A program made the translations under genes and the position numbers. A DNA stretch of 40,881 nucleotides from Gemmatimonadales bacterium (GTDB taxonomy: Bacteria > Gemmatimonadota > Gemmatimonadetes > Gemmatimonadales > GWC2-71-9), in the NCBI GenBank assembly GCA_041615815.1, contig JBFJCP010000034.1, positions 1 to 40,881 of the forward strand, given 5' to 3'. Shown here in pieces: positions 26,367 to 27,739 of this stretch (positions are counted from its first letter, which is position 1; every line of letters starts with the position of its first letter). Below the pieces are notes generated by a model that was not told the DNA's origin, did no database searches, and worked only from the letters and a program-made list of their open reading frames with translations.

Positions 26367-26400
26367 GGGGTCGGGTCGGAACCTCCGGAACCCCGGCCCC
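26367..26400 (+). terminator. GC-rich hairpin after rocD built from opposed heptamer-like units
   Basis: ggggtcggg-tcgga acc tccgga-a-c-cccggcccc; the U-tail is poor. Confidence 0.4.
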
Positions 26401-26403
26401 CTC

Positions 26404-26432
26404 TTGCCAGCCATTCTAGGACCCCTCATACT
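26404..26432 (+). promoter_or_regulatory. sigma70-type promoter
   Basis: TTGCCA (26404-26409), a 17-nt spacer and CATACT (26427-26432), just upstream of an AAGGAG RBS. Confidence 0.65.
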
Positions 26433-26454
26433 GCAGACGGCAAGGAGCGCTCTG

Positions 26455-26532
26455 ATGATTGGCCACTGTTTGCACCAGCCCTTTACCAGCCCCGGGATCT
26501 CGTCTGGGGGCCGAGGGTGGGGTATGCGCTGA
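26455..26532 (+). CDS. putative leader peptide MIGHCLHQPFTSPGISSGGRGWGMR
   Basis: AAGGAG (26442-26447) lies 7 nt before the ATG; the ORF ends 33 nt before the terminator hairpin; too short for the ORF track. Confidence 0.6.
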   Translation: MIGHCLHQPFTSPGISSGGRGWGMR

Positions 26533-26565
26533 TCGAAGGCGCCCGCTCTCTGTTGGTGTTGGCAC

Positions 26566-26591
26566 GCCCCCGATGACGCCGGGGGTTTTTT
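26566..26591 (+). terminator. leader (attenuator) terminator upstream of the PheRS-like gene
   Basis: gcccccg-atgacgc-cggggg followed by T6; ends 31 nt before ATG 26623. Confidence 0.8.
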
Positions 26592-26622
26592 GTGCCTGCG
26601 ACACTGAGCCCAGGAGAGTACG

Positions 26623-27739
26623 ATGCCGAACGTCAAGTTGACCCACGACGCGTATCGCCATGCCCTCGCGGTCCGGGACCTCACGGATCCGGCACGTGGC
26701 GGGCACGCCATGCAGCTGCTGATCGCCGCGATCGAAACGGCCCTGCGGGTGGCTTGGGGGTGCGACTTGCTCCTCCATCGTGCGCATCCCGTGGTGTCGG
26801 TTGCCGATAACTACGACCGGCTGCACTACCCACCGGGGGGAGCGGCGAGAGACGCGCGATACACACGATACGTCAGCGAGACGCTGCTCCTCAGGACGCA
26901 CACCTCGGCCATGATCCCGGCGCTGCTGCGCCGGCTCGCGGTCGAGCCGCCCCGCGACGTGCTGTTGGTCTGTCCCGGTCTCGTCTATCGCCGAGATCAG
27001 ATCGATCGTCTGCACACGGGGGAACCGCACCAGCTGGATCTCTGGCGGATCTATCGGGGGAGACTCGGGGTGGATTCCCTGCGAGACATGATCGCCTGCG
27101 TGGTCACCGCCGCGCTTCCAGGGCGCGACCCCATCACCGCGGCCACCACGCATCCGTACACCGAGCACGGCCTCGAGATCTACGTCCGCGATGGGGAGCA
27201 CCGGGTGGAGGTTGGCGAGTGCGGTCTCGCATCGCCCCACGTCCTCCAGGAAGCCGGACTCGACCCGCGGGTGTATAGTGGCCTCGCGATGGGGCTCGGT
27301 CTCGATCGGATCCTGATGATGCGAAAAGGCGTGGAGGACATCCGGTTGCTGCGCAGCGCCGACCAGCGGGTCGCTGCACAAATGCTGGACCTCGAGCGCT
27401 ACCAACCGGTGTCCAACCAACCACGCATCCGGAGGGATCTTTTCGGTGGCCGTGACACAGGACCTTACGCCGGAAGAGTTGGGTGATCGGGTGCGCGAGG
27501 TGCTGGGTGACTCCGCGCTCCAACTCGAGAGCCTGGATGTGGTATCCGAAACCGCGTACGACGCCCTGCCGGCATCGGCGATCCACCGCATGGGAATTCA
27601 GCCCCATCAGAAGAATTTGCTGATTCGATTGGTGATTCGTGATCCCGTACGCACACTGACGGCGGAAGAGGCCAATCGGCTCCGGGATCGCGTGTACGCC
27701 GCGGTGCATGAGGGGGAAAAGGGCGAGTGGGCGAGATAG
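26623..27739 (+). CDS. PheRS-alpha-like class II ligase with C-terminal FDX-ACB domain, split by a +1 frameshift at 27439-27442
   Basis: Frame 0 has LLRTHTS, PGLVYRRDQID..H...HQ and GLAMGLGLDRILM..DIRLL. The +1 frame restores RRDLSVAV and LLIRLVIRDPVRTLTAEEAN (FDX-ACB). Joined product is 371 aa; the unshifted product is 287 aa (stop at 27486). Confidence 0.85.

Follow-up and report, generated by a model that had tools for sequence, protein, structure and literature searches.

Why a gene for a relative of phenylalanyl-tRNA synthetase (PheRS) should be preceded by a short open reading frame with a single Phe codon, and which signal such an arrangement would sense, is the question raised by a locus on a contig of a Gemmatimonadales bacterium (JBFJCP010000034.1), of which a stretch of 40,881 nt, hereafter the window, was analysed. 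The locus is flanked on one side by an argG-argH-rocD run and on the other by a convergent peptidase gene, as judged by profile search, in a genome with a G+C content of 64%. Our main reading, to which we give a probability of about 0.72 on sequence grounds, is that a ribosome-coupled attenuator at one Phe codon and then a frameshift at a Phe codon would both control the near-Phe-free PheRS paralogue SrmL encoded downstream (Table 1).

Table 1. Features of the srmL locus, in window coordinates
Feature	Position	Strand	Basis
Candidate sigma-70-type promoter, TTGCCA-17-CATACT	26404..26432	+	sequence scan
Shine-Dalgarno (SD) sequence of the uORF, AAGGAG	26442..26447	+	sequence
Leader uORF, 25 codons, one Phe: MIGHCLHQPFTSPGISSGGRGWGMR	26455..26532	+	sequence and homologue comparison
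Sensing Phe codon UUU, codon 10 of the uORF	26482..26484	+	homologous leaders
Segment 1, 5' arm of the 1:2 hairpin	26489..26497	+	folding
Segment 2, 3' arm of 1:2 and 5' arm of the predicted 11-bp antiterminator	26500..26511	+	folding
Segment 3, terminator 5' arm and loop, and antiterminator 3' arm	26566..26576	+	folding
Candidate intrinsic terminator, 7-bp hairpin (3:4) and U6	26566..26591	+	scan, folding
srmL zero frame, 287 aa, class II catalytic domain	26623..27486	+	NF051887, PF01409
Predicted +1 frameshift cassette: GGAGG 27431-27435, 3 nt, CUU 27439-27441, UUC 27442-27444	27431..27445	+	sequence comparison
srmL +1 frame, 98 codons, Phe-free, FDX-ACB-like anticodon-binding domain	27443..27739	+	NF051887, PF03147 below cut-off

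The leader in the window and in homologous loci

A first-pass annotation of the window had proposed an attenuator made up of a promoter, a 25-codon uORF, four pairing segments and a terminator, and all of these elements were recovered at the same coordinates. The pairing of segments 1 and 2 was reproduced at 8 of 9 positions, one of the pairs being G-U, as was that of segment 2 with the 5' arm of the terminator, where the predicted helix turned out to be longer than first seen (11 bp, formed by 26506-26511 with 26566-26571 plus 26500-26504 with 26572-26576). In the 3 kb scanned, two promoter-like sites were found, including that at 26404-26432, against 0.6 +/- 0.7 in shuffled sequences, and the sole terminator-like site was the hairpin 26566-26586 with its T run, against 1.3 +/- 1.0, neither count alone being above chance. 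Folding of the terminator region gave a z-score of -3.46, better than 200 of 200 shuffles; the 1:2 hairpin alone (z -1.58) and the whole leader (z -0.58) each failed to beat all 200. Rfam covariance models, for the T-box or any other cis-element, gave no match at gathering score and one weak match with an E-value of 0.49. A separate G+C-rich hairpin lies between rocD and the promoter (26367-26400), has no U-tail and folds no better than shuffles.

On the comparisons that follow, it is conservation, and not the single elements, that puts the leader above chance. The sample was drawn from 223 related loci on genome contigs, of which the best 80 were used; their titles name Myxococcota, Gemmatimonadota, Actinomycetota, Gammaproteobacteria and a cyanobacterium. 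With the first pattern used, a leader was called in 72 of these 80 loci, giving 73 leaders together with that of the window, and the remaining eight comprise variants (L011, L012, L033, L059 and L072), one locus lacking the flank (L065) and two in which no leader was called (L030 and L080). The expectation that the uORF would be kept in homologous upstream regions was borne out by a fixed test, defined as a uORF with TTT, followed 5-6 nt later by CC, upstream of an srmL homologue, which was positive in 72 of the 78 homologous loci with enough flank and in 0 of 342 windows taken further upstream; upstream of long ORFs of the host genome the pattern occurred in 21 of 2269 windows. When the CC requirement was dropped, the figures became 73 of 78 loci and 8 of 342 control windows. 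A leader was likewise found in all eight loci located later, one of which repeats that of L011, and on two plasmids.

The Phe of the uORF lies at codon 8-13 in all 73 called leaders, at codon 10 in 37 of them, and is encoded by TTT in 72 of the 73, in a host whose ORFs use TTC three times as often as TTT (27963 vs 9358). Since four of the eight later-found loci have TTC at the sensing codon and four TTT, the fixed feature is the amino acid Phe rather than the codon. Because kin are not independent, 39 representative leaders with less than 80% identity were used for the structure tests. Around the Phe codon, the sole steady features among these are the C-run in segment 1 and the G-run in segment 2, segment 1 starting 5-11 nt, mostly 7-8 nt, from the first base of the Phe codon in homologues. 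The peptide features pointed out by the first-pass annotation were thus confirmed in part: Phe is conserved, whereas the Pro preceding it (2 of 39, with Arg in 26 of 39) and the GGRGW motif are not. At position -2, R (15), Q (5), F (5) and L (4) were the residues counted in the 39, and CGA stands directly before the Phe codon in 22 of them, CGA making up 204 of 3383 Arg codons in srmL genes. In L059 the leader core is duplicated in tandem upstream of srmL, a copy with TAT (Tyr) being followed by one with TTT. Polyproline stalling was considered and rejected, with Pro at +4 in only 14 of 39 and the CCC at +3 belonging to the selection pattern.

Promoter-like sites were found upstream of 45 of the 73 leaders and in 7 of 365 coding windows. 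In homologues these sites end mostly 6-9 nt before the uORF start, and most homologous uORFs are therefore predicted to be leaderless; in the window the corresponding distance is 22 nt.

Ribosome position and the output of the leader

Folding was carried out at equilibrium only, with a ribosome footprint assumed to end 12 nt downstream of the A-site codon's first base. In the window, the terminator has a probability of 0.98-0.99 when no ribosome is present or when one sits on the start codon; this drops to 0.00-0.25 for A-site positions at codons 6-10 and climbs back through 0.45 (codon 11) and 0.76 (codon 12) to at least 0.95 from codon 13. For the assumed footprint, the terminator and antiterminator states have equal minimum energies (-39.4 kcal/mol each). 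Among the 39 representative leaders, a 3:4 hairpin is formed with the ribosome at the stop codon in 26, a clear one being absent in the other 13, and is lost with the ribosome at Phe in 21 of these 26, a number that falls to 3 after shuffling of segment 2; it is retained in the stalled state in L034, L035, L036, L062 and L067. In silico, mutually exclusive 1:2, 2:3 and 3:4 helices are therefore set by ribosome position in the window and in 21 of 26 representatives. Two further proposals of the first-pass annotation gain support from these results, namely the attenuator geometry, from the footprint folding and the representative leaders alike, and the Phe codon as the stall point, from the loss of the terminator at codons 6-10 and the conservation of Phe in homologues.

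The step by which the stalled ribosome affects transcription is less uniform. A U-tail is found in only 8 of the 39 representatives. When the pairing of each leader's own segments was compared with cross pairing, the differences were -3.4 kcal/mol for 1:4, -2.2 for 1:2 and -0.5 for 2:3, with controls from -0.3 to +0.8 and the pairs of the window ranking 34, 10 and 27 of 39, so that little leader-specific covariation is seen in the antiterminator 2:3. The retained hairpins, the 31 leaders without a U-tail and this scarcity of 2:3 covariation together suggest that the output step may differ between lineages.

One account, which we regard as possible but rather unlikely, goes further and holds that throughout the family a long-range 1:4 helix acts together with Rho-dependent termination or another step, the U-tailed terminator being the variant of one lineage. 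In its favour are the lack of a U-tail in most leaders and the 1:4 complementarity, which reaches 15-16 bp in L020 and L032 and gives the strongest own-vs-cross signal; such matching is, however, automatic once each segment pairs with the next (1:2, 2:3 and 3:4), and in the window the probability of 1:4 is 0.00 and a U6 terminator is present.

In the reading that we prefer, srmL, a gene for a single-chain PheRS paralogue, would be under two Phe-operated switches, the first being a ribosome-coupled attenuator. When Phe-tRNA is plentiful, the ribosome would pass codon 10 and cover segment 2, or the 1:2 hairpin would form; in either case the 3:4 terminator is predicted to form and transcription to stop near 26591. 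When Phe-tRNA is scarce, the ribosome would wait at UUU over segment 1, which would let 2:3 form and srmL be transcribed.

The SrmL protein and the frame change in its gene

The zero frame of the downstream gene matches NF051887 ('PheS-related mystery ligase SrmL') with 382.1 bits, against a cut-off of 300, over model positions 1-258, and model positions 261-349 fall in the +1 frame, up to 27739; by this profile match the gene is a member of the SrmL family, with a predicted full product of 371 aa. Cut-offs of the PheRS families were not reached (TIGR00468, 104.6 vs 237.45; TIGR00469, 98.1 vs 258.35). A structure model of the homologue P0004 (mean pLDDT 73.8, with low confidence in the active-site loops) had human mitochondrial PheRS as its best match (PDB 3cmq and 3tup). 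SrmL and mitochondrial PheRS have the same domain order at 22% identity, and differ in the pocket, which is remodelled throughout the SrmL family (GEPHQxD where mitochondrial PheRS has PIFHQLE, HPY for FPF, and a Glu in GECG). Motif 2 residues also depart from PheRS across the family, while the motif 2 Arg and motif 3 (GLAMGLGLDR) are retained. In the largely open-access literature that was searched, no published function or regulation of SrmL, its leader or its frameshift was found.

The protein is also marked by an avoidance of Phe. No Phe is present in 112 of 120 close homologues, and Phe accounts for 0.02% of the residues of these 120 vs 3.5% in host ORFs, where not one of 976 ORFs of 300-450 aa is Phe-free and PheS has 22 Phe in 344 aa; the 80 srmL loci contain 20 Phe codons in total. 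The zero-frame protein of the window has a sole Phe, at codon 274, its first 273 codons being Phe-free. Among distant representatives, 26 of 57 long matches are Phe-free and many have a normal Phe content, so that Phe avoidance marks only part of the family. Six distant SrmL-like proteins (P0133, P0134, P0147, P0169, P0177 and P0186) have 9-24 Phe, most of them with the family motifs, and are possibly housekeeping copies. The same pocket motifs are found in distant Phe-normal members, and the motif changes are therefore not merely a matter of Phe avoidance.

What the enzyme does is the part of the scheme on which we are most evenly divided. SrmL may serve as a reserve ligase for times when PheST is inhibited, and on our analysis this is favoured over mischarging or repair. 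The alternative, which keeps the same Phe sensor and which we hold to be doubtful, is that SrmL charges tRNA-Phe with a different amino acid, or acts on this tRNA by repair or editing, and thereby sustains translation in true Phe starvation. A second PheRS would be useless once Phe itself is gone, and the remodelling of the pocket extends to distant members of normal Phe content, both of which speak for this alternative; the retained motif 2 Arg and motif 3, the domain order of mitochondrial PheRS and the structural match to the human enzyme speak against it.

The first-pass annotation had overlooked both the Phe-free protein and the cassette at 27431-27445, where the frame of srmL changes at its sole Phe codon, residue 274. 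The full DNA of the site is represented by the window (CGG AGG GAT CTT TTC G) and L001 (AGG AGG GAT CTT TTC C), the shift of P0003 being deduced from its protein tail; the zero frames of the window protein, P0002 (L001) and P0003 all end in RRDLF plus a few residues. The same shift site is shared by P0001, P0002 and P0003, with pairwise identities of 71%, 71% and 85%. These three shifted sequences form one clade (support 99/95, for 37 chosen rows and the first 268-275 residues), and the frameshift arose once. In both the window and L001 the +1 frame is open and Phe-free, with 62% identity between them and silent sites near saturation, and its pN of 0.29 vs a pS of 0.78 indicates, for this one sequence pair, that the downstream domain is under purifying selection. 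The cassette motif occurs once in the host genome, which is about chance level by a rough estimate; its weight comes from the contrast with 78 in-frame srmL genes, of which two have an SD-like motif, two have CTT and none has both.

Further examples were looked for in several ways. A metagenome pattern scan for the shifted site gave two matches, both in unrelated DNA, and a search for further shifted srmL genes, which took in 401 genomes from the phylum, 3 from the genus and 401 from the family, found srmL only in G346, which repeats L001 and was counted once. Contigs of the sequencing runs X1, X2 and X5 cross the site without a gap and may be the source of the window DNA itself; a contig from soil (X6, with 3 differences over 154 nt) and a divergent contig in X9 also have no gap, each with fewer than 31 aligned letters on one side.

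An unlikely alternative accepts the attenuator and takes the break at 27442 to be unprogrammed, owing to decay of the gene, to faulty assembly or to a split of the gene, the second part having a start of its own. Frame breaks are frequent in these assemblies, occurring in 4 of 79 other loci and 3 of 8 later loci, and these seven scattered breaks set the background for the one at 27442; in addition, a GTG stands at 27446 in the window, 10 nt beyond GGAGG, and a single T inserted in CTT-TCN yields CTT-TTC automatically. None of the other breaks is at a Phe codon, however, whereas the site at 27442 is common to three divergent sequences, no contig aligned over it has a gap, it survives near-saturated silent change with the second domain conserved, and L001 has GTT, which is no start codon, at the position of the window's GTG. 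Transcriptional slippage, which is unlikely at a run of four T, was judged an improbable cause of the change at 27442 for that reason.

A programmed shift has a model in prfB, for the +1 frameshift of which passages of a 2016 review give an SD spacing of 3 nt and CUU_U as the most efficient +1 site (PMC5009743). The srmL cassette resembles prfB in the spacing of 3 nt between the SD and CUU_U and, by prediction, in a slowly read A-site codon whose decoding factor would be subject to feedback. It differs in that the A-site codon is the sense codon UUC, which would sense Phe-tRNA, vs UGA, sensing RF2, and in its location at codon 274, between two domains, in one small clade, so that it would be prfB-like in its working and not a member of the prfB type. 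The host prfB carries a CUU-UGA-C cassette of its own; a prfB-like string on contig C1 was found not to be prfB.

It appears reasonably probable from our analysis that srmL is gated by a hungry codon, that is, that a prfB-style cassette on a Phe sense codon would give the full enzyme only when Phe-tRNA is exhausted, in series with the attenuator and with a protein from which Phe has been purged. A ribosome well supplied with Phe-tRNA would, on reaching CUU-UUC, read UUC and stop 13 codons later, without the anticodon-binding domain. If the geometry of prfB is a guide, a starved ribosome, with the SD 3 nt upstream, would slip by +1, its tRNA-Leu moving from CUU to UUU, and would make the enzyme of 371 aa. 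SrmL would then most likely recharge tRNA-Phe while the housekeeping PheST is blocked, the least certain step, with chances near even.

Distribution, signal and relation to known systems

The gene is rare and patchy, being present in 2 of 401 genomes of the host phylum and in 3 of 121 and 7 of 401 in two other phyla. Beyond close kin, no conserved neighbour genes were found, the largest cluster comprising 13 of 80 loci, and tRNA genes lie near srmL in 3 of 50 cellular loci, none of them for Phe. The host genome has an ordinary pheS and pheT and one tRNA-Phe(GAA), and pheT is present in 4 of 5 other srmL genomes examined. The housekeeping PheS of the host (G000:C16, L082) has RTYTS where aligned structures have HTS.

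A first viral scan with a single protein query gave no match. Five copies of srmL were found in phages, and none of them encodes a Phe in spite of a G+C content of about 30%; the leaders of two carry 4 and 6 Phe codons, with terminator-like sequences behind them, and tRNA-Phe(GAA) genes adjoin srmL in 2 of 4 viral loci. In a phage of 634,780 bp (LR745206.1; L123:3884-5088), the gene for a Phe-free SrmL of 359 aa is preceded by a leader of 16 codons, 4 of them for Phe, and by a strong terminator; no switch appeared when this leader was folded at equilibrium, its 3:4 hairpin being retained in the stalled state. On two large viral contigs (L135:929-2529 and L137:1015-1089), srmL adjoins tRNA-Phe(GAA), on both sides in L135, and no leader peptide was seen at either. 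On plasmid NZ_CP142605.1 (L122:2320-5101), a Cmx/CmrA chloramphenicol efflux gene precedes srmL and its single-Phe leader at a distance of about 480 nt.

The Phe-free homologues, the Phe-run leaders of phages and the adjoining tRNA-Phe genes point to uncharged tRNA-Phe as the most likely signal, in preference to antibiotics acting on the ribosome. That the leader answers ribosome-stalling antibiotics or general translation stress, as the first-pass annotation had suggested in the absence of a Phe run, is very improbable: a single codon is a weak sensor of an amino acid, any stall at codons 6-10 opens the switch in folding, CGA often precedes UUU and the plasmid copy follows an efflux gene, but the leader residue is Phe by either codon, the phage leaders with their Phe runs, the Phe-free regulated protein and the tRNA-Phe neighbours all indicate Phe, and there is no conserved peptide context, the leaders fitting neither the Ala/Ser/Thr rule of chloramphenicol stalling nor a fixed R/K-X-R/K macrolide motif.

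A well-known relative of the proposed attenuator is that of pheM-pheST in E. coli, in which a leader peptide with Phe codons, 1:2/2:3/3:4 helices and an intrinsic terminator precede a PheRS gene. The srmL leader is like it in all these respects, standing before a PheRS-type gene, and unlike it in having one Phe codon vs several and in its predicted control of an accessory, Phe-free, single-chain paralogue; its homologues, moreover, are mostly leaderless by prediction and mostly without a U-tail. In Streptomyces coelicolor, Vecchione and Sello reportedly described in 2010 how trpRS1, an auxiliary synthetase gene, is induced by ribosome-mediated attenuation when the housekeeping enzyme fails. 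A stand-alone auxiliary synthetase gene under ribosome-mediated attenuation would be the predicted role of srmL also, with a different amino acid and a different enzyme class, and with no known inhibitor for the SrmL case. Polycysteine attenuators of mycobacteria, in which Cys runs in leaderless short ORFs control access to the ribosome-binding site (bioRxiv 10.1101/834739), share with most SrmL leaders, as predicted, the use of a leaderless short ORF as an amino-acid sensor. They differ from the SrmL leader in relying on Cys runs and ribosome-binding-site access, where the SrmL leader has a single Phe codon and, in the case of the window, a candidate terminator.

The kind of attenuator proposed here is known. 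The frameshift would combine known parts in a role for which the consulted passages of the 2016 review state that no examples were known, namely the production of starvation-specific trans-frame proteins (PMC5009743), and later papers could change this novelty.

The reading favoured here, of two Phe-operated switches on srmL, would link the 'mystery ligase' of several phyla, plasmids and large phages to one signal, the loss of charged tRNA-Phe, and would thus show which assays to choose for SrmL. With the 15-nt cassette, a long-standing question becomes directly testable in a reporter, that is, whether frameshifting at a starved codon is ever used on purpose, and if confirmed the cassette would be a long-sought deliberate switch of this kind. 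Finally, a cassette so rare, patchy and self-regulating hints at an unrecognised natural inhibitor or toxin which may be directed against PheRS or tRNA-Phe.
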